IMG/VR virus record: IMGVR_UViG_3300050821_017626
Coordinates: 1 to 64,000 of that record
Length of the DNA stretch: 64,000 nt
Source: a virus
Strand: one strand, 5' to 3'
Shown: in pieces, positions 2,885 through 55,326 of the stretch
How positions within the stretch are numbered: the stretch's first letter is position 1
Layout: each line of letters opens with the position of its first letter
Notes under the pieces: generated by a model
Database searches by the model: none
What the model was told of the DNA's origin: nothing
What the model saw: the letters and a program-made list of their open reading frames with translations, nothing else
Position numbers and translations under genes: made by a program

Positions 2885-4594
2885 TCATGGGTGGGTTGGC
2901 AAGCCGTCCATAAGGAGCATGTCAGCCAGATTCTGTTTCCTATCAATCGCCTTTAGGATTTTTTCGTCGATGCTATCTTCGCACACCAGGTCCAGAATGC
3001 TGTATGGGCGGCTGCGGCCCAGGCGGTGGCCGCGCTCAATGCTTTGATTGCGTTCAAGCAGGCTAAAAGTTCCTGAATGGTATGCGAGGCAATCAGCGGC
3101 CGGAATATCGAGGCCGTAAGAGCACGCCTGAATCTGGCACACCAACACCCGCCTCGGGTGACTTCGATCATTGAACTCCTGGCGCAGTTGCTCCCGTGCT
3201 TCGTTCTTGACCGAGCCATCGATATAGCCCAATGCCTCGTCGGGAATACCTGCCGCGAGTAGCGCTTCGCAAACTCGTTTTCGCTCCGCCACATACCGGG
3301 TCCAGATCACCAGATGCGCGTCAGTAGTTTCCAGTTTGTCCTTCACGTAGTCCACGAGCCATTCCGTCTTGGCGCTCTTGATCGGTAGGCAATAAGGCTC
3401 TCCGTCCCCATTGACGGGAAAAAGTCCGCTAGTGACCTGCTGCAGGCGGATGGCCTGATCCAATGCGGAAGCCGCCGTCAGCACCTCTTCCTCTCCCTGC
3501 TCGTTGATCCGTTTGGCGTAGAGATCATCCGCCATCTGTCGATAGAGGGCGGATTGCTCAGGGCTCATTGGCAACCGGATCACCTCGAATTGTTTTTCGG
3601 GCATTGCCACCGCCGCCGCTTTGGTAATCCGATAGGATTGAAAATAGAGTTTATCGATGAAGCCATGCAGCGACTGTGGCTGGAAGGCGACAAACTCCCG
3701 TCCCGTGAATCCTCCCAGTCGAAAATAGGTTTCCGCAAAGCGCCAGTAGGATTTGCCAAACAATTCCGGTTCCACGAACCGGAAGATGCTCCAGATATCG
3801 GCCGGGGAATTCCCCATTGGCGTTCCCGTCATGGCCAGTCGATAGGGACAGCCATCAGCCAGGCGGTGCGCTGCCTTCGCCATCTTGGTATTCCGTTCCT
3901 TGATGCGGCTGGCCTCATCGAGCACGATCATCTCGGGGCGCCAGTTTTTGAGGAACGTCGTCATCCGGGAGAGCGATTCCCAGTTGACAACCGCAATCAA
4001 GGGCCATGCGGTCGGTGCCTTTACCAGCCGTTCCAGGCGCTTCTCCACGGGCATATCAGTCAACATCAGCGGAGTCGCCTGCGGCCAACTGCGCTCCAGG
4101 TGTTGGCGCCACTGCAGCGCCGTGCTGTTCTGCACCACGACCAACGCCTTCTGAAACACGTAGAAACGCATGAGATCGATAGCCATGCGGGTTTTGCCGA
4201 GTCCCATCTCAGCCAGATTCGCGAACCCACCTCCACCATTCTCAAAGCATTGCCGCGCCCAACAGAAAGCTTCCAATTGATGCGGGTACGGCGGGGGTTC
4301 CCCTGCAGCCGGCTCCGGGTAACTTTGAGCAAATTTACTCGGTGCCTTGAGTAATCGGCTGCGAACGGCTACATACTCGTCGAAGGCTTCCTCGAACTGG
4401 CCGATGGTCTCCAGCAGCAGAACATTGGTGCGTGTCATGGGCAGCGCCAGACAGTTCCACTCAGTCCACCACTCCACGCCGGGGGCGCTGCCCAGCAGAT
4501 CCAACTGCCTCTTGCTGCCTTGGTAGCAGAGATACGACTCTCCCGAGGCATCGGGCGCCACTCCGACGCGGTTGATCTTGGAGAGCCCTACCAC
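2885..4594 (-). CDS. SNF2-family helicase
   Basis: EMGLGKT, VLDEAS, MTGTP and ERGHRLG SF2 motifs. Confidence 0.9.
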   Translation of the reverse strand: MVGLSKINRVGVAPDASGESYLCYQGSKRQLDLLGSAPGVEWWTEWNCLALPMTRTNVLLLETIGQFEEAFDEYVAVRSRLLKAPSKFAQSYPEPAAGEPPPYPHQLEAFCWARQCFENGGGGFANLAEMGLGKTRMAIDLMRFYVFQKALVVVQNSTALQWRQHLERSWPQATPLMLTDMPVEKRLERLVKAPTAWPLIAVVNWESLSRMTTFLKNWRPEMIVLDEASRIKERNTKMAKAAHRLADGCPYRLAMTGTPMGNSPADIWSIFRFVEPELFGKSYWRFAETYFRLGGFTGREFVAFQPQSLHGFIDKLYFQSYRITKAAAVAMPEKQFEVIRLPMSPEQSALYRQMADDLYAKRINEQGEEEVLTAASALDQAIRLQQVTSGLFPVNGDGEPYCLPIKSAKTEWLVDYVKDKLETTDAHLVIWTRYVAERKRVCEALLAAGIPDEALGYIDGSVKNEAREQLRQEFNDRSHPRRVLVCQIQACSYGLDIPAADCLAYHSGTFSLLERNQSIERGHRLGRSRPYSILDLVCEDSIDEKILKAIDRKQNLADMLLMDGLPTHP

Positions 4595-5469
4595 CCGCCG
4601 ATCACCGAACTGGACATTACGAAATGCGCCTGGAACCCTGCCTTATCCTTCAACGCCTGGCGCAATTTCCACAAAGCGCGGCGCTCCACGTTGCGAACTC
4701 CCTCGCGAGAGAGGCCCACCTGCTCGGCAATCTCCCGCAGCGTATACATCCGGTGACCGTCGAATCCGTATCGCAGGGCGATCACCTCGTGCTCTCGCTC
4801 GGTGAGTTGCTCGCTCATCGTCTGCAGTAGCACCGTCCGATCATGCTGGTGGAGTGAATTCAGCGCCGGATTGACCGCTCCCTTATCCTTGAGCAGTTCC
4901 CAGAAGAAGACATCGGTGCCCTCGCCGGTATTGCCAATCGCCACGACATCGATGGAGAGGGGATCGCTCAGCAGATTGAGAAAACTCCAACAGACGTGCC
5001 GGGGCACACCGCTCGCTTCGCTCAACTCGTCGAGGGTCGGCTCGCGCTCCAACTCAACCTCTAACTCGCGGAAGGATTGGGTCATCTGCTGTTCCATCCG
5101 GCAGCCGTACGAGGGCATGCGAATAACCCGATCCGTCTTCTCAATGGAACGATTGATCGCCTGCCTGATCCAGTAGGTGGCATAGGTGCTGAACTTCAGC
5201 CCCAACTCCAGCTTGAACTTTTCGATAGCCGTGATGAGACCGAAGATCCCTTCCTGCACCCGGTCTTCGAATGACATGCTGCGACACGAGTACCGCTTCG
5301 CGATGCTGGATACCAACCTAATGTTGGCTTCGATCATCCGGTTGCGTGCTTCGATATTCCCCGCCTGCGCTGCGGCAATCAGCGCCCGCTCTTCCTTCTT
5401 GGTCAGCAAAGGGCGAGAAGAAAAGAGCGGGCCTTTGTCTAGTTCTTCCTCATTCATCGTTTTTACCAT
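4588..5469 (-). CDS. RNA polymerase sigma-70 factor (RpoD/RpoS-like)
   Basis: ANIRLVSSIAKRY, QEGIFGL, KFSTYATYWIRQAI and region 4 TLREIAEQVGLSREGVR. Confidence 0.92.
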   Translation of the reverse strand: MVKTMNEEELDKGPLFSSRPLLTKKEERALIAAAQAGNIEARNRMIEANIRLVSSIAKRYSCRSMSFEDRVQEGIFGLITAIEKFKLELGLKFSTYATYWIRQAINRSIEKTDRVIRMPSYGCRMEQQMTQSFRELEVELEREPTLDELSEASGVPRHVCWSFLNLLSDPLSIDVVAIGNTGEGTDVFFWELLKDKGAVNPALNSLHQHDRTVLLQTMSEQLTEREHEVIALRYGFDGHRMYTLREIAEQVGLSREGVRNVERRALWKLRQALKDKAGFQAHFVMSSSVIGGW

Positions 5470-9731: not shown

Positions 9732-10403
9732 CTATCTCCAACTCTCTAAAACTTGGCGCAGTTGGGGCAGGGCCTTGTCGACCCTCGCTTTGACTGCGAC
9801 CTGCGAGATGCCGAGTAGACTTCCTGTTTCTCTTAAACTCTTGTCTCTGCCGTCCCCGATTCCGTAATAGGTGACCACTGCTTGCCGCTGCGGCTGCGGC
9901 AGTCGCTCCAGTGCCTGGCGGATGGCCAACTGCAAGAGGCGCTGCTCGATCCCGTCTTCTGGATCGAACAACGAATCCTCCCAACTATCCGACAGTGATA
10001 AAAGCCCCGCTGATTGAGCCTCATTTGGACCGTTCTGGCCCGCTTCTTGCTCTACATAATCCTGAGCCTGTTCGGGCTTCGGGCCGCATCCTTCCCTGCG
10101 AAGGAAGGTTGCGATTCGTTTACGAACTGCATAGGTGAGCGGGACCACAAAGGGGCCGCGCTCCGGGTCCCAGATGGCTATGGCGTCGAGCACAGCAAGC
10201 CTTGTCTCTTGCTGCAAATCGCCCAGCCATCTTTTTTTTGCCTTCCACGCCCACGAAAGCGCTTGCTGTTCGTAGAGGTGGTACAGATCCGCTCTCGCGC
10301 TCATCCAGCCGCACTCATCCCCTTGGGAGAGGCAATACTGCATCCGCTCGTAGAGTCTGAGTGAGAGTTGGTGACGCGCTTTACCGGTGGGTAACATGCG
10401 CAA
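9732..10403 (-). CDS. Divergent sigma-70-family factor
   Basis: DLQQETRLAVLDAIAIWDPERG (region 2) and LPQPQRQAV...SLRETGSLLGIS (region 4). Confidence 0.75.
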   Translation of the reverse strand: MRMLPTGKARHQLSLRLYERMQYCLSQGDECGWMSARADLYHLYEQQALSWAWKAKKRWLGDLQQETRLAVLDAIAIWDPERGPFVVPLTYAVRKRIATFLRREGCGPKPEQAQDYVEQEAGQNGPNEAQSAGLLSLSDSWEDSLFDPEDGIEQRLLQLAIRQALERLPQPQRQAVVTYYGIGDGRDKSLRETGSLLGISQVAVKARVDKALPQLRQVLESWR

Positions 10404-10664: not shown

Positions 10665-11015
10665 TTACTTGGGTAGTTTTAGGTTGCCGTCAGGCACATC
10701 GGCGAGGTTATAGAAAACCGGCAACCCCCATGTCTTGGCCATCCCATGCTCCAGATCGGCGCCCGGCGAGCGACTGCAGAGGAACAGGGCGTCGCAGCGC
10801 TCCAGGATGGCCAGGTCCCAGGTTAGGTAATCGGCATACGTCACCTCAATCTGACGTTTTTCGGCACATGGCTCCATCAGAACGTTGAGATGCGGGATGT
10901 AAGGGATGTGACCCTTCAGGTGTAATTCTAGGCCAACATCAATGGCCGCGAGGACATTCGCCGCTTTCTCTTCTTCAGTCGGAGCACTGAGCTTTCCGCT
11001 TACATAGATAATCAA
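10665..11015 (-). CDS. Nucleoside 2-deoxyribosyltransferase-like protein (DUF4406/DUF1937 type)
   Basis: IYVSG, PYIPHL, DLAILERCDAL and SPGADLE. Confidence 0.65.
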   Translation of the reverse strand: MIIYVSGKLSAPTEEEKAANVLAAIDVGLELHLKGHIPYIPHLNVLMEPCAEKRQIEVTYADYLTWDLAILERCDALFLCSRSPGADLEHGMAKTWGLPVFYNLADVPDGNLKLPK

Positions 11016-11392
11016 CGATCTCTCCTCCCCCGCTCGTCAATGACACGCCAGCCCGCCTCGGCATAGCCTGCCACGTCGACATTCGTATCGCGTTTGGGCG
11101 CTCCCACATTTATACCGTTTGCATAGCGAGAAAGCTTGCAGAGGTTCATGATCGGGAAAACATCTTCTCCGATGATTTCTGCCCCCTCGGCCAACAGATG
11201 TCGGCTCCTAAAATAGGTTGTCAGATAGGCCGCGAAGGTATCAAAATCATCAATCGGATGCCCATAGTCTGTTTCGCGCGGCCCAAAAACCAGTTTGTGG
11301 GCTTCTAGCGTGACAGGCTGGTACTCATCCTCGTTAGTCAAGACTGTGATCCTGATATTACCGGTCGTCACGTTCGATAAATTCTCTTGCAT
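11012..11392 (-). CDS. DUF6378-like phage nucleotide-metabolism protein
   Basis: GPRETDYGHP, KLSR and DTNVDVAGYA. Confidence 0.65.
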   Translation of the reverse strand: MQENLSNVTTGNIRITVLTNEDEYQPVTLEAHKLVFGPRETDYGHPIDDFDTFAAYLTTYFRSRHLLAEGAEIIGEDVFPIMNLCKLSRYANGINVGAPKRDTNVDVAGYAEAGWRVIDERGRRDR

Positions 11393-11750: not shown

Positions 11751-12431
11751 TTACCAACTCATGATGTCATGATTTCGATGGGCCTGACCCCAAAGCTGTT
11801 TGTCAATCCATTCTTGCTCTGTTGTGACCTTGGGCTTCGGGTTGATGTCGCGCTCGATCTCTTTGCGGGACCAAGGGACATACGAATCCTCATAGACTGA
11901 GGCTTCCAGGTCGCAGTAACAGTAGGCCATGGCGTCGGCGCAGTCGGGGCTTTTGCCCGTCCGTTTCTTGATCTCATCCTTAGCTTCCAACTGAATGAGT
12001 CCGACCCGATTGAACCAACGGGGTGTGCAGAGCTGCCCAATTAATTCATCGTCGCGAGGCAAAGTAATCTCGGTTTCATTCCTCGGGTCGAGGCAGTCCC
12101 TGAGATTCCAGTACGCGTAACTGCGCATATTGCGAAATCCAAGGAGACCAGTGGAATCTTTTCGCTCGCAACGGGCATTACCATGGAAGGGAATGACTGG
12201 AAGCCCTTTGTCTCGTAGGATATCCAGCACGCCAGCGCCATAACCACCGTCGCAATCGATGATAATGGCGTCGAAGCGGTATCGGTTGTGGTGTTGGATA
12301 ACCCTGCCAGCGGATTCGAGCGAGTCGGCCTTGCTCCACTTATCCATGACGAGGAATTTCATGTCCTCGCGACCATATAGAACGCTTTTATCCACTCCCT
12401 CTCGGGCGATGTCGACTCCCGCGACCCTCAT
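11751..12431 (-). CDS. Terminase large subunit, C-terminal nuclease domain only
   Basis: GVDIAREGVD, IIDCDGGYGAGVLD, FRNMRS and KRTGKSPDCADA (RNase H-fold TerL nuclease); no ATPase motifs. Confidence 0.85.
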   Translation of the reverse strand: MRVAGVDIAREGVDKSVLYGREDMKFLVMDKWSKADSLESAGRVIQHHNRYRFDAIIIDCDGGYGAGVLDILRDKGLPVIPFHGNARCERKDSTGLLGFRNMRSYAYWNLRDCLDPRNETEITLPRDDELIGQLCTPRWFNRVGLIQLEAKDEIKKRTGKSPDCADAMAYCYCDLEASVYEDSYVPWSRKEIERDINPKPKVTTEQEWIDKQLWGQAHRNHDIMSW

Positions 12432-13653
12432 TCCTTTTTGTTGCCTTTCAATTTTGCTTTAACCTGAATAACACAGGATACGATTGATAGAATGGTAGCC
12501 ACGGCCGCGAGGATCAAAAGCAAAGCTGGGAACAGGATAATTGGCCCCCACTCGACTAAGAATTTCATAGGGCTACTGTTTTCGGAATAGATGGTAGACA
12601 AGGGCATCCACTGCCACAGCGGCAATAAAGAATGCCGCACCACCCCAAGGGTTGTTGTAGTTAAAACAAATTGCGGATGCCCATATACATAGTAAGCCGC
12701 CCACGACGAGCATTCCTTGTGCTTCACTCATCTTGGCTCTTTGCTACTTTCTTTCTCAATTTATTATTCTCGTGTTTGACCATCGCCCACCGCCCGTGCC
12801 AAACAGACGTTAGTTCTATCTGCCGATTCAGTGCCTTCTGCAGGCGTTGCAGCCGAGCCTCGTAATTGGAGACGTATTGCAGAAAATGGGCCGCGCGCCA
12901 TTCATCGGGCGCAATCGGACAAAGGGGGTGATGACCATCGAAGGCGCCGCATTGAGGATGGGGACATTGAATCCTGTCGAGTTGCGTCAACTTAACGTCA
13001 CCAGAATGGTCGAATTCAAGTTCCCACTATACGCTGTACACTCGACCCTAAAATGGGTTAACATATTCTTCAAAAGTACTCTAATTTCAGAATCATCGCA
13101 AACTACCGTTTCAACAGGGCTCCCTAAACAAACCATAGGGCTACCGAACCAATCGACCTCCACTGGCACAGCGTCAGTCTTTACTGGAGCAGTCTCCGTC
13201 ACCTCTATTGGCCCCTTGACCACAATCGTTTCAAACCCCTCCGGCTTCTCCGCATTAGGTATCCGATTACCGTTCATGTCGTGGACGTAGATCAGAGCTT
13301 CATTGAGGCAGTCGTCACACCAGATCACATCTGTAAGCACCGATCCACGCAACTTGACGGAAAAGTTCTTGCTGTTTCTTACATGATGGAGCATCTTACC
13401 ACCTCTCGCTTCCGGGGAGGGCCAACTGCATGGACTTGCCGGTCTCGCCCAGTTCGACGCGGGATGGCCCTGCGACGAATCTTACTTGGGTAGCAATTCC
13501 GTTAGCCAGCAACCGCCTACCCCGAGCCAGGGCTTCCTCGGCACAGTCGTAAAGGATGGGCTCGGTCTCTCCAGCACTATAGCAGTGCCAGTGGCCCTTG
13601 CGCTTGCGATAGATCACCAGGTAATGACTGAGGTCAAATAGCTTTCGAGGCAT
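12428..13653 (-). CDS. Four small hypothetical genes (12428-12727 membrane protein, 12724-12990, 12987-13394, 13396-13653)
   Basis: Abutting ORFs downstream of a TTAACA-class promoter. Confidence 0.55.
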
Positions 13654-13672
13654 CGCGTTCCCTCCAATCTGT

Positions 13673-13702
13673 AGTATACGTCGCCAGGCGCCGACTTGTT
13701 AA
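13673..13702 (-). promoter_or_regulatory. TTAACA-N17-GTATACT promoter (copy 3)
   Basis: Exact motif heading the operon that contains the TerL nuclease gene. Confidence 0.75.
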
Positions 13703-13963
13703 CCGGGCAAGAAAGAAGTTTTTGACCTGCAGATGGGCGCTTGGTTGGCCATAATACGAGAGGTCGAACCCAAGAATGTAATTACGGTAATAATAGTGTG
13801 ATAGGGAGGGTTGCAATGGGTTACACACGAACTGAAAAGAAGGAAGAAGCCAAACGCACGGCAAACAAACTCCTGATCCGCTCGCGGGTGGAGTATGTCG
13901 TCGACTCGGAACGGGTCGATCAGGGATTGCGCCTGATCTTACGTCGCGTGATGGGAGAACCCG

Positions 13964-15742
13964 ATGAGCCGCAACCGCTTCCGAGACCCGGAGAAGACCC
14001 TTGCCCGGTACGACGAACAAGATAGTCAAAAACACCGACCCCTTGCTGGGCGCATTGCCGCTCTCTACGAGCGGGTCTCCGGTGATCGCCAGGCCAAAGA
14101 AGCCAGCATCGAAACTCAAGATTCCTACCTCCGGCAATACTGTCAACACCACGACATCTTCATCTATGACACCTATAAGGACGATCCCGCCAAGAGCGAG
14201 GTCCCAATGGCCGAGCGTGCTGAAGGCCACCGACTGATCGAGGATGCCAAGAGAGACTGTTTCGATCTGGTCTTGGTCCACAGTATTTGCCGCTGGAGTC
14301 GCTACCCCGATGTCTACAAACAGGCACAGGGAACGATGCACAAACTGGGCATCGATCTCGACTGCCCCTCCGAGCATCTCTCCTGGGATTCCCCCGGTGA
14401 ATCCTTCGCCTCCGATGTCCGACTGCGAAGCAGTCAGTTGGTCCGCGATATCATCGACAAGGCTACCAGCGACGGGAAGTATACTTGGGCCGCAAAGGGA
14501 GCCGCTCTCGGAGCTGCGCCCCACTATGGCTATCTTCCCATCCCTGCCCCCGAGTGGGGGAAGAATCGAAAGCGGCTCGTTATCGATGAGCAAGAAGCGG
14601 CTATCATCCGGCGGATCTTCGATCTCCTTGTTCGTCAGCGACTGAGCTGCCGGCAGATTGCGGCTCTCTTCAACCAAGAAGGCGTCCCTTTGCCCAGCGC
14701 GTCTCCGAAATGGGATGGCTTCCGCAATCATGTTTCCGCACGAAAATGCCAGGGCCGCTGGTCGGCCTCTCGCGTCAGCCAGATTGTCCGCGACCGACTG
14801 TTTCTCGGGCAGTGTCTCTACGGAGGAACAGACCAGCGCCGCCCAGTTCTCCGTTTGGTCCCGGCAATCATCGATGCCGAGACGTTCGCGCTGGCGCAAC
14901 TGCGTTTAGCGGAGAATTCAAAACGCTCCAGTCGCAACTCCAAGCGGTGCTATCTGCTTTCCGGCAAACTGCGCTGTGCCACCTGCAACGCGGCTTATAC
15001 CGGCGTCACCGAGAACAATGGGACCAAGGCCAAGGCGCGCGGATGGACGCCGCGCCCCATCTACCGTTGCCAAGGATACCAGCGTAAGTTCGATGGCCAA
15101 GACACCCAGTGTCCCTTCTATCGCTTGCCTGCAGTTGCGCTCGAAGACGATCTGTGGGAAACCCTCGTGAACTACCTCGAACATTACGAGGATCGTCTCA
15201 CCGAACTGCGCGATGAATGGCGCAACGATAGTCAGTCCAGAGGCCGCGCTGCCTGTCAGCGAGACGAACTCTTCCGGCGCCAGCGACGACTTGAAGAGGA
15301 AGAGACGGACGCTCTCCGGGGCAAGAGCCGCCTCGGCTTCGACCTGACCCGCGAGCAAGCCCGACAGATCCTGGATACGGTTCGGGAGGAGAAGAAGCAA
15401 CTAGACATTAAAATCTCTGAACTGGATGCGCTGTTGCTTCATCTCGACCAGCGGCAAGCCCATGTGGAAACTGCCGAGGAGTACATCGAACGATACCGGG
15501 CGAACATTCGCGAGGTGCTTGACCCCAAGATGCGCCAGGAGATCGTCGCGGTGTTCCTCGAATCTGCGCTTGTCAAACCGGGTCCTTCTGGCGAGTGTCT
15601 GGTTACTTACCGGTTCTACACGCACGAGGCACTCTCCGAGCACACATCAATAGCGAAAGCAGGGTCAAGACCTCGCTTTATCAATTGGTGTGTGGAAGTG
15701 GTGCGCATATTGCTCTACGGTAGACAAAGGACCAAGGGATGA
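13964..15742 (+). CDS. Large serine recombinase (integrase-type)
   Basis: YERVS catalytic serine, PHYGY, recombinase domain, YLLSGKLRCATC..YRC Zn ribbon and coiled coil. Confidence 0.9.
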   Translation: MSRNRFRDPEKTLARYDEQDSQKHRPLAGRIAALYERVSGDRQAKEASIETQDSYLRQYCQHHDIFIYDTYKDDPAKSEVPMAERAEGHRLIEDAKRDCFDLVLVHSICRWSRYPDVYKQAQGTMHKLGIDLDCPSEHLSWDSPGESFASDVRLRSSQLVRDIIDKATSDGKYTWAAKGAALGAAPHYGYLPIPAPEWGKNRKRLVIDEQEAAIIRRIFDLLVRQRLSCRQIAALFNQEGVPLPSASPKWDGFRNHVSARKCQGRWSASRVSQIVRDRLFLGQCLYGGTDQRRPVLRLVPAIIDAETFALAQLRLAENSKRSSRNSKRCYLLSGKLRCATCNAAYTGVTENNGTKAKARGWTPRPIYRCQGYQRKFDGQDTQCPFYRLPAVALEDDLWETLVNYLEHYEDRLTELRDEWRNDSQSRGRAACQRDELFRRQRRLEEEETDALRGKSRLGFDLTREQARQILDTVREEKKQLDIKISELDALLLHLDQRQAHVETAEEYIERYRANIREVLDPKMRQEIVAVFLESALVKPGPSGECLVTYRFYTHEALSEHTSIAKAGSRPRFINWCVEVVRILLYGRQRTKG

Positions 15743-16053
15743 AACCTCAAAAAGTGACGATCCTACACCCATGCGGTCATTCAGTCGAGCATCGCTCATC
15801 TTGTCCAAGTGCGTTTGCAGCAAGACAGCAGGAGCGCCCTTGCTTGGCATGTCGGCGGAAACAAGAACGAGCCCAAGGGAGGATAGCCAGGAAGCGCATG
15901 GAGCGTTCGTCTCTGTATCTATGTTTAAGGATGGTAGCTCTTTGTCACCCGGCGAAGAAGGAAGTCCAACTGGAGGAGTTGCCGCCCTCACATCAGCGTT
16001 ATGTTCGGATGTTCGAACGAAAGTACCGGGACTACTTCGGGAGGGATGCCTAG
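15739..16053 (+). CDS. Small Cys/His-rich protein coupled to the recombinase gene
   Basis: ATGA overlap; HPCGH and CLAC motifs. Confidence 0.5.
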   Translation: MKPQKVTILHPCGHSVEHRSSCPSAFAARQQERPCLACRRKQERAQGRIARKRMERSSLYLCLRMVALCHPAKKEVQLEELPPSHQRYVRMFERKYRDYFGRDA

Positions 16054-16109
16054 CGACCCCGCTCTGATTGGGTCCTTCTCAACTGTGAAGCAACATGGTA
16101 TACTACTTC

Positions 16110-16183
16110 GCGCGTATACCCTCGGCTCATTGCAGTCGTAGGGCCTCCTAGTGGCCTCCGGTCTTCACCGGGGGCCTTTTCTT
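16110..16183 (+). ncRNA. Candidate ~70-nt small RNA with its own promoter and terminator
   Basis: Promoter TTCTCA-N17-TATACT with extended TG (16076-16104), a hairpin, a CCTCCT linker and terminator GGCCTCCGGT-CTTC-ACCGGGGGCC-TTTT. Confidence 0.45.
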
Positions 16184-16305
16184 CAACTATTCGAAGCAGC
16201 CTTCTCTTTGCTTGGCATGCTCGTCTACGGTATACTAACGTCGTGCGATTGAAAAGTTGAACCTAAAAGCAACCACCGAGATAGAGGTCTGTCAGGAGGA
16301 GTGTC

Positions 16306-16503
16306 TTGCCGGCAAACTGTCCAGCTCGCCCGGAGGAGCTGATCACCGTAGCCCAAGCAGCTAGGCTTAAAGGTTGCAGCACCCGAGCGATCTACGACGC
16401 TATCCGAACCGGAAAACTCAGGCCCTGGAAAGACGAGCCCGTCCTACTGCGGAAGGTTGACGTGTTAGCTTGGACGCCGACCAAGCCGACAGGGCCTCGG
16501 TAA
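16306..16503 (+). CDS. Excisionase-like HTH protein
   Basis: LITVAQAARLKGCSTRAIYDAIRTGKL; preceded by TTGCTT-N17-TATACT. Confidence 0.7.
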   Translation: MPANCPARPEELITVAQAARLKGCSTRAIYDAIRTGKLRPWKDEPVLLRKVDVLAWTPTKPTGPR

Positions 16504-16518
16504 GGCAAGGCGCCGGAA

Positions 16519-17014
16519 CTAACTGGCGCCTTGCTCTACCAGATCGATGGTTCCTCGTTTTCCTCGCACCCACCGCTCCAACGCCGAGAGAGATTGCCCC
16601 TGCGACCAAGCAAGGATCGGCGCAGTCTTGATGATCGTTCCCTGATCTACCACAACACCCGCGCAGAGATGTGGGAGGACCACCCGATAGAGTTGCGGCT
16701 CAGACGGCAACGGCTGCCTGACGCTTCTGTTTCGATTCCCTCACCCTCTTGCCAATCTCCTGCCGGTTCTGCAACCCCTCGGGAGTATCGGGATCAAACC
16801 GCCGCTGCTGCGCCAAGCTTTTCGCCTGGCGTGTTTCCTCGCTATCGCGCGAACCGGCGGGACGACCCCGCTGTCGGGTTGGCTCGGTGACAAAACTGCT
16901 GATTCGTATCGCTACCGGAATGGAACACCCTCGCATTGACAGCATCTCCAGCGCCGGCAGCACTTCAAGCGCCTCGCTGGAGGTTAGATCGATGATCGTG
17001 TGATTGTTTTCCAT
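16519..17014 (-). CDS. Two small genes (16700-17014 with an RGRP AT-hook-like motif; 16519-16710)
   Basis: Overlapping ORFs downstream of a sigma54-type motif. Confidence 0.5.
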
Positions 17015-17065
17015 CTTCTTTCCCTTTGACCGTGGGGGGGCTTTACGCCCGCCTAACTACTCTTG

Positions 17066-17082
17066 TGCAATATGTGTGCCAA
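17066..17082 (-). promoter_or_regulatory. sigma54-type motif
   Basis: TTGGCACACATATTGCA, intergenic. Confidence 0.65.
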
Positions 17083-17593
17083 AGCGCTACGCGGAAGGCT
17101 TTGTCGTCTGCCGCAAGAGATTATGGCGAGTGAAGAGATGGACTGAAGGTTAAATTATTTGAAGCAACGAGGTGCCGAAAAGTATCGGTAAGCTATTGCT
17201 CGGTCGTCTAAAGATCGGGGCCGAACAACTGCACAGGGCCGCGTGTAGTGGTATTGAACTCCCAAGCCGCCACCGGGTTCAGCCCGTCCATCACCCTAAC
17301 CTCGACGGCGGCGCCACTCAAGATCAGGGCTCGCCCCTTGTGATTTGCCTCGTAAGAATCCAGTTCTTTCCGGCCGCTCAACAGACACCGGTACTGAATC
17401 CATTCCCCTTCTGGCTTCTCGCGGTAGTAGACCTGGGCCATCGATGCTCCTTATGGGGAGGGGTGTTCATCGGTGTTTGGCACGTTTTGTGCAATAACCC
17501 AAAAAATAGGCAAAAAAGACCTAAAGATACTTGAGTTGACGACCGATAACTTGTTGGGAAACGTGAGTAGGAGCCTCCCGCGAGGGGGGGGCA

Positions 17594-17950
17594 TTGATAG
17601 GTTCGGAGAAACAGATGGGTCTCACGGAGACGGAACGGGAAACACTGGTTGGGATCTACCGCCGCGACGTGAGCTACTGGGAGTGGCCCTACTGGGTCGG
17701 CTGCGCGGTGAAACAGGGGCGAGTGAGTATGGGCCTCGCGTATGTGCTGCTGCGCTACCGCCCGCAAGCGGGAATGCCACGACTGCGGAAAGAGATGAAC
17801 GAACTGTACTGGCAATGCCTGGTTGACCGGGCAGATGAGTACGAAATGCGGATCGAGCAGGATCAGGGAAAACTGTTCCTGGTCTCGGATCGGCCGAGCG
17901 ATGAGGTGTTGGAAGAAGAGTTGACAGAAGAACTTTGTTGCACTGAGTGA
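17594..17950 (+). CDS. Hypothetical protein
   Basis: G-rich RBS; near-consensus sigma54-type motif at 17477-17493. Confidence 0.5.
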   Translation: MIGSEKQMGLTETERETLVGIYRRDVSYWEWPYWVGCAVKQGRVSMGLAYVLLRYRPQAGMPRLRKEMNELYWQCLVDRADEYEMRIEQDQGKLFLVSDRPSDEVLEEELTEELCCTE

Positions 17951-18057
17951 CGACCAATTGGAGGGATACAATGAACTCGCAGGTCCTCTGGGGCGATTGA
18001 GGAGGAGCGAGGGCGTTGAGCAGAAAGAGGGCACCCAACGAGGTGCCCTTTTCCTTT

Positions 18058-19152
18058 TCAGGAATAGCGGGCTCGCTGATCCTGAAGAACCTGAAGGGCA
18101 ACGGAAAAGGATTTCCCGAAGAAAGGCAAGAAGTGACGTGTCTCGGGATAGAAGATGAGCATCGGAATGCCGACCGAGCCGCGATAACCGCCCAGGCCCT
18201 GCGCATAGTCATCCATCCTCAAGTATGATCCACAGCGCAAGAAAACAACGTCGCCAAGCGGTTTGCTAACCATCTGCATGTCGTTGTAGTGCTTATCCCC
18301 CATCACAATAGCGTCAGCGTCAGGCCATAACTGCTGATGGATCATGCGCTGTGCGTTGGTTGTGTTGACGGAGCTTTCGTTTTTGAACTTGTGACGGAGG
18401 CCCAGCTTGTATTTTTGATGGCCCACCAGAATATGGACGAGCGCCCCATGCCAAAAATAGGGAACGTTGAGATCAGTCGCCCAACGTTTGGTAAGAGTGA
18501 TCCCCGATGCCTGCTTGCTATTCTCCTCGTGGTTCCCGGTGACCAGGCCGAGCAGCTTAGACTGAACCTTTTTCAGCAGATAGAGAGCGCACTCTTCTTG
18601 CTCTTCGGGACTGGGGAGAACACAATCATGCAACCCTTGGGGGTGCTTTCGCTGGTTCAGATTCTGAATGAGGTCCCCCATCGCGAAGCAATAAAGCCCC
18701 TCCGTGTCCTGGATGGTCTGCGTATCCTTCAAGAGCTGCCGCATCAGGACACCTTTAGCCCCGATCTGCCAATCTCCGGTAAAACAGATCCCGATGGGCT
18801 TGCTCTCCTTGGAAAAATCGACAGTCGCCTGCGTCTGTCCGGCAAAAGCCGCCTCTGCTCTCTCCACCTGCTGCATCGCCAGATCGTAGAGTTCCAACAC
18901 ATCCTCGTCGGAGCCAATGCGCCGATCTGGGAACCGGGCGCCCTCTTCGGGCTGTTGTGGCGGCTGCAATGGGGGGGTGGCTTCTTTGGGTGAATGAAGG
19001 CAGTAATAGTTGCGGATTGCGGAGGGAGATAGGTAGACCTGGAACCGCTCGTAGATGGCCGAGGCCAGTTCTCCCGAGGTGGTGCGGGGGTAGTGCTGGA
19101 GCACGAAGGAGCCAATCTCGGGGTGTGAGGACCATTGAAACGGTTTAGACAA
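18058..19152 (-). CDS. Calcineurin-like metallophosphoesterase with N-terminal extension
   Basis: GDWQ, MGDL, GNHE, RHK and GDKH motifs; TTG start at 19152 follows GGAGGA. Confidence 0.75.
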   Translation of the reverse strand: MSKPFQWSSHPEIGSFVLQHYPRTTSGELASAIYERFQVYLSPSAIRNYYCLHSPKEATPPLQPPQQPEEGARFPDRRIGSDEDVLELYDLAMQQVERAEAAFAGQTQATVDFSKESKPIGICFTGDWQIGAKGVLMRQLLKDTQTIQDTEGLYCFAMGDLIQNLNQRKHPQGLHDCVLPSPEEQEECALYLLKKVQSKLLGLVTGNHEENSKQASGITLTKRWATDLNVPYFWHGALVHILVGHQKYKLGLRHKFKNESSVNTTNAQRMIHQQLWPDADAIVMGDKHYNDMQMVSKPLGDVVFLRCGSYLRMDDYAQGLGGYRGSVGIPMLIFYPETRHFLPFFGKSFSVALQVLQDQRARYS

Positions 19153-19658
19153 GGCTAATCCTCCGAAGCCTCTCCATCCAAAGACCCATAGACAGCGTGA
19201 GTGTAGATGGCTGGCGGTGGGCTGGTAGGTGGGGCTGCAAGGATTATACACCTCGGAAGCCAAGTTTGGCAGATTCTTTGGCCTCTTTCTTGCATTGATG
19301 CCCAAGGAGGGCTAAAATGAAGGTGAAAACGCGCCCAGTACACCTGCGCCGAGGTTTAGGGCTAACCTGGACCTATTGCGGCCGGCGGGTGCAGCGGGTT
19401 GTCTGCGCCGAGCGGCGAGAAGATGTTACCTGCCAACGATGTCTCGCAAGACTGAGGCAGATTGAGAAGGATGCAAACCGGTGAAACTTACATTGGTGGT
19501 CGGAACTGACAACGTTGGATCGGATGTCGAAGAAGTCATAGAAGTTTCAGAAGAAGAACTCGCCGGACTAGATCAGACGGCAAAGGAAAGATTGTTTCAA
19601 AAATACCTGGAAGAATGGGTATGGGAGCATATCGACGCCTGGTATGAGGTAGTGGAGG

Positions 19659-19838
19659 ATGAGTGAATTGAAACCAGGCGACCGGGTGAAAGCCCTTGGC
19701 CCCGGCCCCTATAAAGGGAAGAAGGGGACATTGCGAGAGGTGAAAATGAGCGTAGTTCAGTTCTGGGTTGAGTTGGACCTTGACTACGGGGGAATTCTTA
19801 CGGAGTTTCGAGAAGGCGATCTGGTGAAATGCTCATGA
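19659..19838 (+). CDS. Stand-alone KOW-motif protein (59 aa)
   Basis: MSELKPGDRVKALGPGPYKGKKGTL; below the ORF-track cutoff; RBS present. Confidence 0.55.
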   Translation: MSELKPGDRVKALGPGPYKGKKGTLREVKMSVVQFWVELDLDYGGILTEFREGDLVKCS

Positions 19839-20874
19839 ATGACGATCTGGGGCGCCGCGCCTCAAGCGGCCCCGGTCTTAGAAATCGATGCCTGATTACG
19901 GGGCAGCCTTTGATTTGTAGTCGCTGCGGCGGATCTTTGGCCGGAAGCGGAGAGTGTTTGCAGGACGAGTGTCCCGGTAATGCCTGGAAGCCCTTGGGTT
20001 CGCGGCATCGCTGGTGGATAGAGGAGGATTGGCGATGATTGCTTTCGAAGATGCGCCTCCAGGTTGGGACCAGGTAACATGGTCAGCAAGACCCAATCGG
20101 TGCAGTGAGTGTGGCAATTTGTTCGAGATAGGCTGGCGCCAGGCAAAGGGGAAGCGGGAATTCAAATGTGATGACTGTATTATCGGAGCTATGCCGAAGT
20201 CGCCGATGGAAGAATATAAGCAAAAAAAGGATTTGGTGCGCCAGGTGAGGCGAGAAGCGCCGGCCTCGGGATCGCGGCGAAGGAGGAAGAATGGCTGAGA
20301 ATGCATGTCATGGCGGCTGTCAGCAGGTGATCTGCATCTGTCCTGGCCTCTGCTTGGAGTGCTATCAGGTTACGAACGAGCCTCGGAAGGCGTGGAAGCC
20401 CCCGGATCGGCCGGGGCTTTTCTTTGGTCCAATTGCGATTTTCGAGGAGTGCTGGCAGAAGAAAGTAGGATCGGATGAAGAAGAGCCAAAGCCCGCTGGA
20501 TAGGACAAAATGGCTTAACCTGTAAGTTTCGACGGTCTGGTGTCACTTGGGTAAGGGGTGGGTCAAAAGGCTCGTAGAATGGCATATATAGAATTGAGGT
20601 TGGTATGAATGCTGACATAATTAGATTGGTCCTCGATGCGGTGGTCGAGCGCCATGGTAGTCTGGAAGGGGCGAAGTTCGTAGCGTTCAACACTAAGTTG
20701 GACAAGAACGACAACGCGCTGGTGTTCGTCAGTTGGAGCATGGGTTCAGAACGGCAGTGCTTGCGGTATCTGGTTCTGAAGGATCAGACAGTGATGCGAG
20801 TTCCGCCGAAGAAGGAGCTGAAGAACCCTGATTGGGTCAACGCATGGAAATCAGGCGATCAAGGCTAACCTCAT

Positions 20875-21392
20875 GCGCACATGCATGTCACCTGAAGCGG
20901 AAAAAAGACACTAATGCCGTGGGAATCGAGATGCACCTGTTTTTTGTGGTTAAACGCAATCAGAAATGAAAGGGTTAGGCACGGTCGATGGTTGCGTATG
21001 AGAACAAAAGTGCCAAAATAGCTCAAAACAGGGGACATGAGGGAAAAACGCGGTTTTGTGGTTATCTACAACTATCGATTAGTGCCTGTGATAGGCACGT
21101 CGCAATAGTTGTATGGCAGCAGTAAAACCGTGTTTTACTGAATCCCCTGTTTCTCCGTCTTTTCACCCCTATTACGTCTGTCTTTACATCTCGTAGTAAA
21201 AGTGTTATGTCATACAATATCATCACAATATCGGTTTGGCGCCTTTAATAGTTAGTTTTTTCAGGCGTGAGGAGGATTGTATACGGGTGTCACAGGAGTG
21301 GCATTGATTGCAGATAGGGACAAAAACGAGGTTCTATTTTTTATTTTGGGGATAGGTGCGTTTTCGCTATCAGGTGACATGCATGTGTGCGC
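20875..21392 (+). repeat. ~520-bp non-coding quasi-palindromic element, copy A
   Basis: Terminal inverted repeats (CACATGCATGTCACCTGA/TCAGGTGACATGCATGTG) and block identity with the reverse complement of 51261-51780. Confidence 0.85.
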
Positions 21393-21416
21393 GTAACATT
21401 ATAGCGAAAAATACGC

Positions 21417-21446
21417 CTAACAAAATGAGCCCCGGCGACGTATACT
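21417..21446 (+). promoter_or_regulatory. CTAACA-N17-GTATACT promoter (copy 4)
   Basis: Heads the rightward operon leading to TerS and the TerL ATPase. Confidence 0.7.
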
Positions 21447-21462
21447 GAGAGTAGGAGGAACT

Positions 21463-21897
21463 ATGCTGGATATACTAGAGTTGGCGGAGATCGAGGGCCG
21501 GGTGACCGCGCTTCCGGCGGGAGCATGGTTCGTGGGGCGGGACCCTGATCACACTTATTGGGTGCAGCGGGTGGTGAACTACGAACGGATTGCCAAAATC
21601 TATGCGCATGATGGTGCCGACAAAGCGGCAAGCGTTGCGGAGTTCATCGCTGCCTCGCGAACGGATGTGCCCCGGTTGGTGGAGGAGGTGTGTCGCCTCA
21701 ACCGGATTGTTGAGGAAGATGAGATTACCATTGCTGCGATCCACCAACAGAGGGATGATTGGCAAAAGTGCTGGGAGGAAGAAGCTGCAGAACGGGCGCA
21801 GTTGGCAGGAAGGGTTGAGCGGGATAACCAGCGCATCATCCAGTTGCTGGAGGAGAGCCTGGAGCTGCGCCGACAACTGATGGAGGCCAAAGCGTGA
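21463..21897 (+). CDS. Ead/Ea22-like phage protein
   Basis: AEFIAASRTDVPRLVEEV followed by a coiled coil; strong RBS. Confidence 0.55.
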   Translation: MLDILELAEIEGRVTALPAGAWFVGRDPDHTYWVQRVVNYERIAKIYAHDGADKAASVAEFIAASRTDVPRLVEEVCRLNRIVEEDEITIAAIHQQRDDWQKCWEEEAAERAQLAGRVERDNQRIIQLLEESLELRRQLMEAKA

Positions 21898-23599
21898 TTG
21901 CGGCGATCTCGATTTCCCTTGCAGTTGGCACGGCGCTGTGGGTGCTGTGGGCGGCGGCGATATTCCTGCTCTACCGGATGGGCGAGCGAGTGGCGGCGCT
22001 GCAGAAACAGGTCAACGAGGTGCAGGGGCAGGTGAATGCGGCGCTTACATCGGCGCAGGGAGGGCACCAGTTGGCTGAAAGGGCGTTGGAACTGGTGTCG
22101 AAGAGGAAGGAAGTGGACTTTGAGTGAGAGGGCGGTGTGGTGCGACGACTGTGATTGTATTCACCGATATGCGTTCTGTCATGCCTGTGGCGATTGGGTA
22201 AATATTCATCAGTGTGTGACCGTCTACAATCGATATCCTTGGTATCTGTTCTGGCGCCGCAAAACAATGACCTTGTGCGGGGAGTGCGTGGATCAGATGC
22301 GGGAGAATCTGCGGGCGCATGCGACGATGGTTTCGGAGGAATGGTGGGCGGATGAGAGTGAGTGAAGATAAGAATGGAGTTGGTTGGATGGGGTGGGATG
22401 AACCTGAGGGCCACCGAAGTTACGTGCGCTGCGGTAAATGTGGTCAAGGCGCGCGGGGATCGGCTAATTATTGTGCAAACTGCGGGGATAGATTGCGCTT
22501 TTCCTGCAGTAGCTGCGATCAGATTTTGCCCGAGAAAAGATCCTGCCGGCATTGTGGGTCCGAGATTTTTAAGACGGGCTTGATGGGGGCTAAATGTTCG
22601 ACTTGCGGGAAGGGTCAATAGTATGGTTTCCGATGGAAATGTCACGTTGGGACGATAAGAAGTGGATTGAATGGTGTTCGGATACGTACTGGCGATTGGT
22701 AGATGAGGGCACAACAATACCCAGTTTTAACTGGAAGCACCATCGGTGGTTACGGACCCAAAAGCGGCGGATGGAGTATCGGGGGAAGGTGAGGAGGAAG
22801 AAAAGGCGATGAGAGAGCGATTGCGAGAGACGTGTTGTAGTGTATGCTGGCGGTTTTTCCCTGCGCGAGAGCAGAAGACGCTGTGGAGGGAGAATTTTAT
22901 TGAATATCCGCTGACAGTGTGTCCCTCATGCTATGTTGCGAAGACACCAGGGGATCTGGAGAGGCCGATGGATAAGATAGTAGGGGGATCGTAGCGGGTT
23001 TGGAAGGTGGATGGGGCTTTGATAAGGGAGGGGGCGAATTGGGTCAGGATAAGGCGGCAGAACAATTGGATAGAAAAGTCCGGCAGCCAGATATCAATGC
23101 TCGGTACCGGGAGATCGAAAAGTCGGTAAATGTCAGTGTGCTGGATGTGGCCAAAGCGCGGTGCAGTGGGTGTCGCGGAAAGAGCGGGGGTGATGAAGGA
23201 CTAGTCTACTACGTTCACTGTTTCAGGGAAGAGAATCGGCCGATTCGGGCGTTGTGCAAGAAGTGTGTGGTGGAAATGGCTGGTGGGGTGGAAAAGGTCT
23301 ATGTCAGAGAGGCGATTGGGCCGTTCTTGCGGAAGTTTTGGGAGAAAGATCGGCGGGAGAAGAAGCGGAACGTGACTTTATCAGGGGTGCAGATTGAAGC
23401 GATGCAGAGGGGGAGAAAGAATGCAGCCCGAGAAGAGAGCGCTCTGTGAGGCCCTAAAGGAGATGGCCTGCGCCGCTACTGCGCTTGCAGCAGCCATCGC
23501 GCAGCGAGATACGAAGTGGAGCGAGCGACTGCGGGCGGAGAGTTGGCAGGCGCTGAATGAGGCGATGGATAAGGTGACTTGTTTGAGTGGAGTTCCACG

Positions 23600-24442
23600 A
23601 TGAGTGATGTAGTGTTGCATTTCAAAGATGAAACTTCGCAAGAATGTAAGAGCGTGTGCCATGCAATTGCCTTTTCAATGTTCTATGACGAGGAAAAGAT
23701 TGTCGACCGGATTGAACTGAAGGGCGAGCGGGTGTTTCCCGAGGGAGTGAAACCAGAGTACTGGCCACGTTATTGGGATCAGTGGGCAACGGCGGGGATG
23801 GGGCAGGGATTGGGTCGGAGCAAGTTTTTGCAGGAGAAGAAACGGATGATGGAACAGTATGCGCGGACGGAAGAGGAGGAATTGGCGGCGCTGGATGCCA
23901 GTATCGCGGAGCTTGAGGGACGGAAGCAGACGCCGGTCAATCGGAAAAGCTCGCTCATCATCTCGGCGCTTATGACTTCTTCCTCGATTGAGGAGGCGGC
24001 GGCGAAGGCGAAGGTGTCGGGAAAAACCGTGAGCACGCTGTTGCGGGACCCGGATTTCCAGCGGGAATATTATGCGGCACAGAAGATGACGACGGCGCAC
24101 GTCGTGATCTATCTCAAGAATATGTTTGGGGATGTGGTGCAGCGGCTTTATGAGATCCTGTGCAATGAAAGCCATGCGGTGAGTGCTCGGGTGCAGGCGG
24201 CAGGGTTGCTGATGCGGTATTCGTTTGAGATGATTCAGCGGGACGTGGACGAAAAATTCAAAGAGGAAATCCGCTACTTTATAGCTGAGATCAAGGCGCG
24301 CCAGCTAGGTCAGGGTCAGGTTCCTACAATGAAATTAATGGCGCTGGCGGAGGCGGGCGATGAAGAGGCGGAGTTCTATGGGGAAGCGATGGTAGCGGAG
24401 GTGGATAGTAGCGAAGGGATAGGTGGAGGGGTGGGCAGTTGA
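23600..24442 (+). CDS. Terminase small subunit (HTH-type)
   Basis: HTH SIEEAAAKAKVSGKTVSTLLRDPDF, ARVQAA, and overlap with the TerL start. Confidence 0.65.
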   Translation: MSDVVLHFKDETSQECKSVCHAIAFSMFYDEEKIVDRIELKGERVFPEGVKPEYWPRYWDQWATAGMGQGLGRSKFLQEKKRMMEQYARTEEEELAALDASIAELEGRKQTPVNRKSSLIISALMTSSSIEEAAAKAKVSGKTVSTLLRDPDFQREYYAAQKMTTAHVVIYLKNMFGDVVQRLYEILCNESHAVSARVQAAGLLMRYSFEMIQRDVDEKFKEEIRYFIAEIKARQLGQGQVPTMKLMALAEAGDEEAEFYGEAMVAEVDSSEGIGGGVGS

Positions 24443-25431
24443 AGCTCACGCTGAATGATCTGGATGTGAGTAAGCCGTCCGATGTTTTGGGGGTGCTGCA
24501 GGCGGAAAAGAAGCGTAAAGATTTATTGCGGGAGTTGAAGCTGGAGTTGCAGGCTGCTTCGACAACGGATTTTTCTGACTTTCAGAAGACAGGTCTCAGG
24601 ATTTTCAAGCGGCCGGATATATTTGCCAGGGAATATGTCAGGTGGCCAGAGGGAGAGAAGCTTACTGCCTATCAGGAGGAGCTTCTACTCGCTATTCCCA
24701 CCAAAGAGCGTATCGCGGTGCGGGGGCCGCGCGGGCTCGGAAAGTCCTGTCTCGCCGCCCTGGCAGTGCTCTGGTTCTGCCTGAGTCGTGAGAGTCTGGG
24801 GGTCGATTACAAGTGTATTATTACAGCCGGTTCAGCAAATCAGCTTCGTAGGTACCTTTTCCCGGAGATACGCAAGTGGGCACTTCGCCTCGATTTCGAT
24901 AAGATCGGCAGGCCAAAGTTCTGCGAACGGAGCGAGCTGCTCAAAGATGCACTACAGATGTCACACGGCGAGGCGTTTTGCGTGAGTCCCGATCAGCCGT
25001 CCTTGCTGGAAGGGCTTCATGCCTCCGAAGTGCTGGTCGTGATCGATGAGGCAAAGACGGTGTGTGACGAGATATTTCACAGCGTTGAGGGCTTCTTCTC
25101 ATCGGCGGGAAAAGACAGCGGCAAACATGCCTTCGCCATTGCGATTTCAACACCATCAATCCCAGTGGGAATGTTCTATCGGCTGCACAGGCGAGAGCCT
25201 GGATTGACCCACTGGCACGCGAGGCATGTCAAATTGGATGAGGCCCTGGCCGCAGGGACGATTACCCAGGAGTATGTTGATCGGCTGGCGGCGCAGTTTG
25301 GCAAGGATTCGTCCTTCTTCCAGCAGCAGGTGCTGGGCGAATTTGCGGCAGATGATGACAGCGGAATTATCTCCTTAGATTGGATACTAAGGGCGTGTGA
25401 TCGATACGAAGAGGAATTAGAGAATGCTTGA
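24439..25431 (+). CDS. Terminase large subunit, N-terminal ATPase domain only
   Basis: Walker A RGPRGLGKS, Walker B VVIDEA, coupling motif ISTP and VLGEF. It stops at IISLDWILRACDRYEEELENA, before the nuclease domain. Confidence 0.88.
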   Translation: MKLTLNDLDVSKPSDVLGVLQAEKKRKDLLRELKLELQAASTTDFSDFQKTGLRIFKRPDIFAREYVRWPEGEKLTAYQEELLLAIPTKERIAVRGPRGLGKSCLAALAVLWFCLSRESLGVDYKCIITAGSANQLRRYLFPEIRKWALRLDFDKIGRPKFCERSELLKDALQMSHGEAFCVSPDQPSLLEGLHASEVLVVIDEAKTVCDEIFHSVEGFFSSAGKDSGKHAFAIAISTPSIPVGMFYRLHRREPGLTHWHARHVKLDEALAAGTITQEYVDRLAAQFGKDSSFFQQQVLGEFAADDDSGIISLDWILRACDRYEEELENA

Positions 25432-25621
25432 TAACCAAAGTGGGCAGTCATCTCTTACCGTTTCCGAAGCCTCTGACCTGAAGATGATCGAGCCCTCCCT
25501 GATCCTGCGGGCCATCAAGACGGGGCGGCTTCCTGCAGTCGAGGAGGCATACGGTAAACGGAAACGCTATCGGATCGATTCGGATGACCTGGAGCGGTGG
25601 GTTGAGTGGCGGAAAGGCTGA
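25424..25621 (+). CDS. Excisionase-like HTH protein
   Basis: LTVSEAS...IKTGRLPA...YRIDSDDLERW. Confidence 0.7.
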   Translation: MLDNQSGQSSLTVSEASDLKMIEPSLILRAIKTGRLPAVEEAYGKRKRYRIDSDDLERWVEWRKG

Positions 25622-26500
25622 TGGCTTCCTGGACTGCAGTGAGCGATAAAGCTATCTGGCGCATTCATTTACACCTAGGATTTTATCGCGTGTTCGTGGG
25701 CGCAAACCTATTTGTCAGTGGGCGACAATGGACCTTCAACCTTGGCGTCCCCGGAGTTCATCTACAGTTTCTCTGGTGTAGGAAATAATGCTTGCCTTTT
25801 GGCATTGGTGGATTGGTCCTTGGGCGTATGAACCTGTGTGGTTGCATATGTTTGGTCTTTGGGGCATGTTCAAATTGGGGCAGATTACGGGTAGGTGCGG
25901 GAGGTGACGCGATGTTGGTTTACGGCATTCAAATCGAGCCCGTTAAGGGCTGGGTCGAGCAGTTCGAGCATCCCGAGGGCGGAGCGGTCGTATTCATGAG
26001 CGCTCGGGATGCTCTGATGGTGGCGCAAACGCTTTACGATCTGCTGAAGGTCCCGGTGACGGTTTACTGGGCAGAAGCGGATCGGAATGATTTCGCCTGG
26101 AAAGGGAATGTTCTGGATTTGCGTGAGTATGTGTCGCTGGAGCAGGAGAGGCCGAAGGGTTAGTCATCTCCAACCGTAGTGGGCAATATCCCAAAAACCA
26201 AGGCCAACAAGTGATAGATTGGCAAGGATCAGAGACCATACCACGATACAGAAGCAGACCCAGTGGTGGCGGGCGGCAGCGTGAATGCCGAGCTTCATGG
26301 TTTCCCATAGCCATTGGAGTGATTTCATGCCACAACCTCTTCCGTTCGGGTCACTTTCAACAGGCGATATTTGTCGTGGCCTTTTTCCGAACGCAGTTCT
26401 TCGAGTTTTGCAAGAGCCGGTTTCAAGTCGAAATATAGGAATACAGTACCATCCCAAATTTCGTGTTCCTTATCATCCCACCTCGTCTCGATGATGTATT

Positions 26501-55231: not shown

Positions 55232-55326
55232 CTGTTTCCCTCTCCACGATCTAACTTGTGCCGTTATTGGCTACACTCATAGTAGCATAAACCGTGCCAA
55301 ATAAAGGGTTTGGAGCTATATTACTG

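Follow-up and report, generated by a model that had tools for sequence, protein, structure and literature searches.

Predicted ATPase and nuclease halves of a phage large terminase in two distant genes on opposite strands: a probable two-chain enzyme

Introduction

The structurally characterized large terminases (TerL) considered here are all single chains, namely T4 gp17 (PDB 3cpe, 2o0j), Sf6 gp2 (4idh, 5c10), the source of the E217 nuclease (8dkr), and the TerLs of D6E and P74-26; their isolated domains in the PDB are laboratory truncations and not natural subunits. Closer in sequence to the genes described here are gp2 of Streptomyces phage TurkishDelight (547 amino acids, aa), Pas60 of Actinoplanes phage phiAsp2, and, for the nuclease part, ORF053 of Planktothrix phage PaV-LD. 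TerLs of the TurkishDelight type carry both domains on one polypeptide with a linker of ~12 residues, immediately downstream of a gene of helix-turn-helix or small terminase (TerS)-like type. We analyzed a 64,000-nucleotide stretch (hereafter the window) that forms the first 64 kb of the 96,261-bp linear IMG/VR viral record IMGVR_UViG_3300050821_017626, a metagenome contig without terminal repeats that derives from a tailed phage from soil and is ~79% complete by the CheckV estimate. Its TerL has the same two domains in the same order as TurkishDelight gp2, phiAsp2 Pas60, and PaV-LD ORF053, a TerS-like gene upstream, the predicted folds of the characterized enzymes, and their Walker A, Walker B, and acidic nuclease residues. 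In contrast to all of them, it lies in two genes 12 kb apart, on opposite strands and in different operons.

A second point of comparison is provided by genes that large serine recombinases rejoin, such as Bacillus subtilis sigK, interrupted by skin and restored by SpoIVCA, and Anabaena fdxN, restored by XisF. As in those systems, the two halves of the gene flank the coding sequence of a large serine recombinase. In sigK and fdxN, excision rebuilds one in-frame open reading frame (ORF) from halves without their own start or stop, whereas in this phage both halves are complete, conserved ORFs, and a rejoined form was not seen. What is distinctive here is the 12-kb separation, the opposite strands, and the two operons with a common promoter. 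In the full-text literature, with few subscription journals covered, we found no published report of a TerL naturally divided at its domain boundary.

Results

The two halves of TerL are encoded by the following ORFs:

24439-25431, plus strand: TerL-N (P0001), stand-alone ATPase/translocase half, 330 aa, TTG start; assigned by phrog_2, TurkishDelight gp2, and the AlphaFold2 fold
11751-12431, minus strand: TerL-C (P0002), stand-alone RNase H-like nuclease half, 226 aa, ATG start; assigned by phrog_2, C-terminal TerL matches, and the AlphaFold2 fold

The two products match adjacent parts of one PHROG family profile, phrog_2 (TerL), with TerL-N aligned to profile positions 262-474 (E = 1.3e-23) and TerL-C to positions 482-596 (E = 2.2e-9). 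TerL-N contains a Walker A (GPRGLGKS) and a Walker B (VVIDEA) motif, and its residues G99, G101, K102, and E204 are invariant across the alignment with its relatives. In tblastn searches against isolated phages it is 46% identical to the terminase gp2 of Streptomyces phage TurkishDelight; against Pfam Terminase_6N it scores 19.9 bits, slightly below the 22-bit cut-off. Its AlphaFold2 model (predicted local distance difference test, pLDDT, 87) has the T4 gp17 ATPase domain as top PDB fold match (E = 1.7e-9). The predicted product of 24439-25431 is a complete TerL ATPase domain of the ASCE type.

In the same tblastn searches TerL-C is 36-40% identical to the C-terminal part of the TerLs of PaV-LD, TurkishDelight (38%), and phiAsp2. 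Its residues D7, D59, K151, D163, and D166 do not vary among split or full-length relatives, its PDB profile match is 8dkr, and its AlphaFold2 model (pLDDT 85) has the E217 and Sf6 TerL nuclease domains as top PDB fold matches (E ~1e-9, vs. ~1e-5 for RuvC); poxvirus resolvases are also among the secondary matches. The predicted product of 12431-11751 is a complete TerL nuclease domain.

TerL-N ends in DWILRACDRYEEELENA, directly followed by its stop, and TerL-C begins with MRVAGVDIAREG. Across dozens of full-length relatives, the alignment with the ATPase half ends at P0001 residues 323-330 and that with the nuclease half begins at P0002 residues 1-5; the two alignments lie ~12 residues apart in those relatives, so the cut falls within the interdomain linker and nothing is missing. 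This bears out the original prediction that the halves, encoded on opposite strands, part at the domain boundary and if joined would resemble a normal TerL without obvious loss. The halves also belong to one TerL family and have the same nearest isolate terminases, TurkishDelight and phiAsp2 Pas60, as had been expected of them, with PaV-LD ORF053 added for the nuclease part alone. No other TerL of any family was detected across the 96-kb, ~79% complete record; a full-length copy elsewhere had been named as a refutation of the split. In the record, TerL is represented by two ORFs in separate operons and not by a single polypeptide.

Both ORFs are embedded in operons, whose relevant features are as follows:

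21417-21446, plus strand: promoter P1, CTAACA-N18-TATACT with GGCGACG before the -10 element; heads the operon 21463-26163, which holds the TerS-like gene and the ATPase half
23579-24442, plus strand: candidate small terminase, 287 aa; weak match to phrog_2538 (E = 1.1e-4); overlaps TerL-N
13673-13702, minus strand: promoter P2, TTAACA-N18-TATACT with the same 13-mer GGCGACGTATACT; heads the operon of four small ORFs and then the nuclease half
12428-13653, minus strand: four small ORFs (85, 135, 88, and 99 aa) between P2 and TerL-C, from the ORF list

Each half overlaps a neighboring gene, as originally noted. The TTG start of TerL-N overlaps the stop of the upstream 287-aa gene (TTGA, 24439-24442), its stop is overlapped by the ATG of the next gene (ATGCTTGA, 25424-25431), and the ATG of TerL-C overlaps the stop of the upstream 99-aa ORF (ATGA, 12428-12431). 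The 287-aa gene has no Pfam match; its placement is that of canonical TerS-TerL pairs, and we tentatively assign it as TerS. The four small ORFs match neither PHROG nor Pfam. The TerL-C operon also holds genes for a deoxyribosyltransferase, a sigma factor, an RNase H, a methyltransferase, a clamp, and a helicase.

The claim that both operons begin with the same class of promoter was correct. Both heads, at 21417(+) and 13702(-), read (C/T)TAACAA-N10-GGCGACGTATACT, with a GGAGG ribosome-binding site and an ATG coming next. The exact 13-mer occurs at only two places in the 96-kb record, in P1 and P2 (~0.003 occurrences expected by chance), and both promoters were recovered by an independent consensus scan. 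The looser class TTAACA-N17/18-(G)TATACT, or TTAACA(A)-N16/17-(G)TATACT, has about six members in the record, which stand at operon heads: window positions 2859(-), 8054(-), 13702(-), 21417(+), and 46689(-), and record position 73643(+). One of the two sigma factors that the phage itself encodes (4588-5469, 9732-10403) may recognize promoters of this class. No strong terminator-like site was found between P1 or P2 and its half, the only candidates being weak 5-pair matches at chance frequency. Since the two divergent operons have the same promoter class, TerL-N and TerL-C are probably produced together.

The split is conserved in diverged relatives. A search of 5.8 billion proteins returned seven nuclease-only proteins with 98-100% coverage (P0035, 228 aa, 55% identical; P0036-P0041, 235-236 aa, 47-49% identical), and a cluster look-up added an eighth, P0043 (243 aa). 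All eight begin at the same Met, before GVD(I/V)AR and just ahead of the first catalytic Asp, and together with TerL-C of the window (n = 9) they form one clade (Shimodaira-Hasegawa-like approximate likelihood ratio test, SH-aLRT, 99). The ATPase-only protein P0003 from the same search (337 aa, 55% identical) aligns over residues 1 to 326 and ends at the same point as TerL-N; it forms a clade with P0001 (support 99-100) nested in the same TerL family, and P0047 groups with these two at SH-aLRT 89 only. The nearest split relatives are 55% identical for each half. Judged by these alignments and trees, the split is older than the separation of at least two subclades, with nuclease subunits that are 47-55% identical today.

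Independent assemblies contain the same ORFs. An 85-kb Logan/ENA contig, assembled independently, encodes P0044 (330 aa, one substitution relative to TerL-N), and a protein identical to TerL-C is present in JGI, Logan, and ENA. In a scan of JGI metagenomes, one contig (L092) was syntenic and carried a nuclease-only gene, preceded by an unrelated ORF with weak similarity to the 135-aa ORF at window 12987-13394 and followed by homologs of window 10665-11015 (deoxyribosyltransferase-like) and 9732-10403 (sigma factor). This operon is headed by a similar promoter, TTTAACAA-N17-ATATCT.

No fused protein more than ~43% identical to the nuclease half was found in the 5.8- and 1.8-billion-protein sets or in the scans of IMG/VR and GTDB. 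Single-protein scans of IMG/VR with P0001, P0039, and P0003 gave zero relatives, and P0002 gave six distant TerL loci alone (27-28% identity). Alignment-based scans of IMG/VR and GTDB yielded no demonstrable stand-alone member of this clade, the matches being mostly full-length TerLs and contig-end fragments with at most 43% identity, except for one contig-end fragment (L155, 51% over 82 residues). Four short ATPase matches from the 1.8-billion-protein search that end near the domain boundary (P0046, P0060, P0126, and P0162) were rejected as split forms; they scatter on the tree, and the closest relative of P0046 in IMG/VR is an ordinary TerL of 497 aa.

Two other arrangements were seen among the TerL homologs. 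A full-length TerL of 933 aa (L097:1562-4363) has a nuclease domain interrupted by ~390 inserted residues, probably an intein, and P0004 and P0005 seem to break off at this insertion point. A 74-kb contig of a Calothrix metagenome-assembled genome (L026/L101:8464-9435) has a 323-aa ORF with a TerL nuclease domain at residues 140-323; at the thresholds applied, nothing in it matches the ATPase half. This ORF may represent another kind of split, or a frameshift, in a cyanophage-like element.

Further features of the record that concern packaging or the interval between the halves are:

55294-57102, plus strand: portal protein, docking partner of the packaging motor; phrog_213, E = 1.4e-15; 30 kb from the ATPase half
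13964-15742, plus strand: large serine recombinase; phrog_95 integrase, E = 1.2e-66; Pfam Resolvase, Recombinase, and Zn_ribbon_recom

Besides the weak TerS candidate, the record carries the portal gene at 55 kb and a protease-capsid gene at 70 kb. The latter is a single 1169-aa ORF (record 70041-73550; L098:6041-9550) with a prohead protease match at residues 424-627 and a major capsid match at residues 833-1149, and from these matches it looks like a protease-scaffold-capsid fusion. The recombinase, which from its domains is probably the phage integrase, lies in the 7.7-kb block between P1 and P2, and we found no evidence linking it to action on the terminase genes. The minus strand below 11 kb carries replication and transcription genes, among them those for two sigma factors, a sliding clamp, a helicase, an RNase H, and a methyltransferase. 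At window 10665-11392, downstream of the nuclease half, a nucleoside 2-deoxyribosyltransferase-like gene adjoins a gene of a "phosphofructokinase" PHROG; in L092:2576-3457 a homolog of window 44023-44469 is joined as a further domain to the deoxyribosyltransferase-like part. These genes may belong to a DNA-modification pathway. Immediately 5' of P1 is a ~516-bp element (20875-21392) with 30-nt terminal inverted repeats (83% complementary), which may be regulatory or resemble a miniature inverted-repeat transposable element. At the Rfam gathering threshold, the whole window (1-64000) contains zero RNA families. The nearest TerLs to those of this phage occur in actinophages, cyanophages, and soil metagenomes.

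Discussion

We propose that the large terminase of this phage is probably an old, fixed two-chain enzyme encoded by two genes. TerL-N, the ASCE ATPase/translocase, and TerL-C, the RNase H-like nuclease, would be permanently separate polypeptides that act jointly on the portal to cut the concatemer and package DNA. They would do so in a non-covalent complex, or else the nuclease would be recruited in trans. The original prediction had likewise preferred a fixed two-subunit split, and this preference is strengthened by orthologs at 47-55% identity with the same ends and neighborhood, by the ORF in an independent assembly, by the invariant catalytic residues, and by the lack of a second TerL in the record.

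The arrangement could have been created by one inversion of ~12432-25431, with one breakpoint in the TerL linker of one operon and the other in an intergenic position of the opposite operon. Such an inversion would have exchanged the distal parts of two divergent operons, with a promoter remaining for each half. The predicted geometry is right: if 12432-25431 is turned back, a single minus-strand operon behind P1 holds the TerS-like gene and then the ATPase and nuclease halves, and the four small ORFs come to follow P2 and run on into the genes now 3' of the ATPase half. A single inversion between two divergent operons would be parsimonious and would account for the promoter that each half already has. 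A comparison of neighboring genes with those of full-length relatives gave no match outside L092; because no relative that preserves the ancestral order was found, the inversion is something that we infer from the present layout.

Several points weigh against a two-chain enzyme. The halves have no obvious added interaction modules, and the TerL-C gene sits among genes of DNA metabolism and transcription, not among packaging genes. In the 2004 work of Kanamaru and colleagues on the domains of T4 gp17, mixing separately expressed domains reportedly failed to restore packaging. The nuclease-only clade is on a long stem (0.9 substitutions per site), which could signal a shift in function. A single secure ATPase-only ortholog (P0003) was recovered, no relative was seen with both halves, and the part missing from the ~79% complete record could carry a second TerL.

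Some of these points are what one would also expect if the halves were uncoupled, the ATPase half alone being the motor and the TerL-derived nuclease serving in RuvC-like resolution, degradation of host DNA, or free cutting. A motor of this kind has a precedent in phi29 gp16, which packages without an active nuclease, and cutting could fall to the products of HNH and endonuclease VII genes that lie close to the structural genes. The company of the nuclease gene would suit such a role, since it is co-transcribed with the deoxyribosyltransferase, sigma-factor, RNase H, methyltransferase, clamp, and helicase genes, and likewise in L092, and so would the long stem of its clade and the presence of RuvC and poxvirus resolvases among its secondary fold matches. 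We nevertheless consider uncoupling unlikely. TerL-C is of the TerL-nuclease type in both sequence and fold, with E217 and Sf6 far ahead of RuvC, and it retains every residue that is invariant in full-length TerLs; its operon and the TerS/ATPase operon have a unique extended promoter in common, and the halves have diverged equally from their nearest split relatives (55% each), as expected of partners.

A recombinase-gated switch, in which the large serine recombinase would invert ~12432-25431 and fuse the halves into one TerL, thereby licensing packaging, had been judged the less likely option, and we find it very improbable. The original prediction rightly placed a large serine recombinase within this interval, whose inversion would set the halves head to tail on one strand. 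It was also right that no att-like (attachment-site) repeat marks the breakpoints, as we found no inverted repeat at the junctions 12431/25431; serine-integrase att sites need only a common 2-bp core, so the missing repeats leave room for a switch. The GAATG that is the sole sequence common to both junctions falls, however, in different reading frames (G|AAT|G in one gene, GA|ATG in the other), and a crossover there would join the halves out of frame, as had been stated. Moreover, the two halves each possess a conserved start or stop of their own, a separate ribosome-binding context, and translational coupling to a neighbor; the ORF ends are unchanged in relatives at 47-55% identity; and the split form alone appears in the protein databases and independent assemblies, with no fused protein above ~43% identity among the 5.8 or 1.8 billion proteins. 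Neither a recognizable recombination site nor in-frame rejoining, as in interrupted genes and invertible switches, was found. Joining after transcription or translation, by a split intein or by the halves of a trans-splicing intron, would bring to mind the cyanobacterial dnaE halves, which are likewise encoded far apart, and inteins are common in this TerL family (L097 is a probable example). Yet TerL-N ends 5 residues past the last residue aligned with full-length TerLs and TerL-C starts at the first aligned residue, and with no extra residues at the cut there is no space for an N-intein of ~100 aa or a C-intein of ~35 aa, neither of which is present; the flanks are occupied by overlapping ORFs, and no Rfam intron reaches the gathering threshold in the window. 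With no additional residues at the cut and no Rfam family, we regard this explanation as ruled out for practical purposes. We say the same of artefact or decay, in which the metagenome assembly is a chimera or the terminase of a defective prophage broke recently and no longer functions; an incomplete metagenome contig without terminal repeats would be in keeping with this. Since the same ORF occurs in the independent 85-kb assembly, and the split orthologs are conserved with invariant catalytic residues and a kept neighborhood, misassembly, which the original prediction had named as a refutation, and recent decay to a pseudogene are excluded, and the chance of either is negligible.

If the two-chain terminase is real, the split might be adaptive and not an accident that was tolerated. 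Separate chains and operons would let the amounts or timing of translocase and nuclease be set independently, and might also weaken detection by Avs-type STAND NTPases, which grip both TerL domains; PDB 8dgc is Avs3 bound to the whole TerL. We regard an adaptive role as quite doubtful. Were it to hold, the packaging motor would work with its nuclease in trans, which bears on the question of which TerL domain docks on the portal.

Structural and mechanistic models all treat TerL as a single ATPase-nuclease chain, and linker-mediated coupling of the domains is central to several of them. If, as we think probable, the domains have been kept on separate chains over a long divergence, covalent linkage would be dispensable. 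In phages of this kind one could then ask, in a natural system, to which domain the portal binds, by what means translocation and cutting are linked, and whether the nuclease belongs to the motor as a stoichiometric component. Software for annotation or completeness estimates that assumes a single TerL will miscall such phages.

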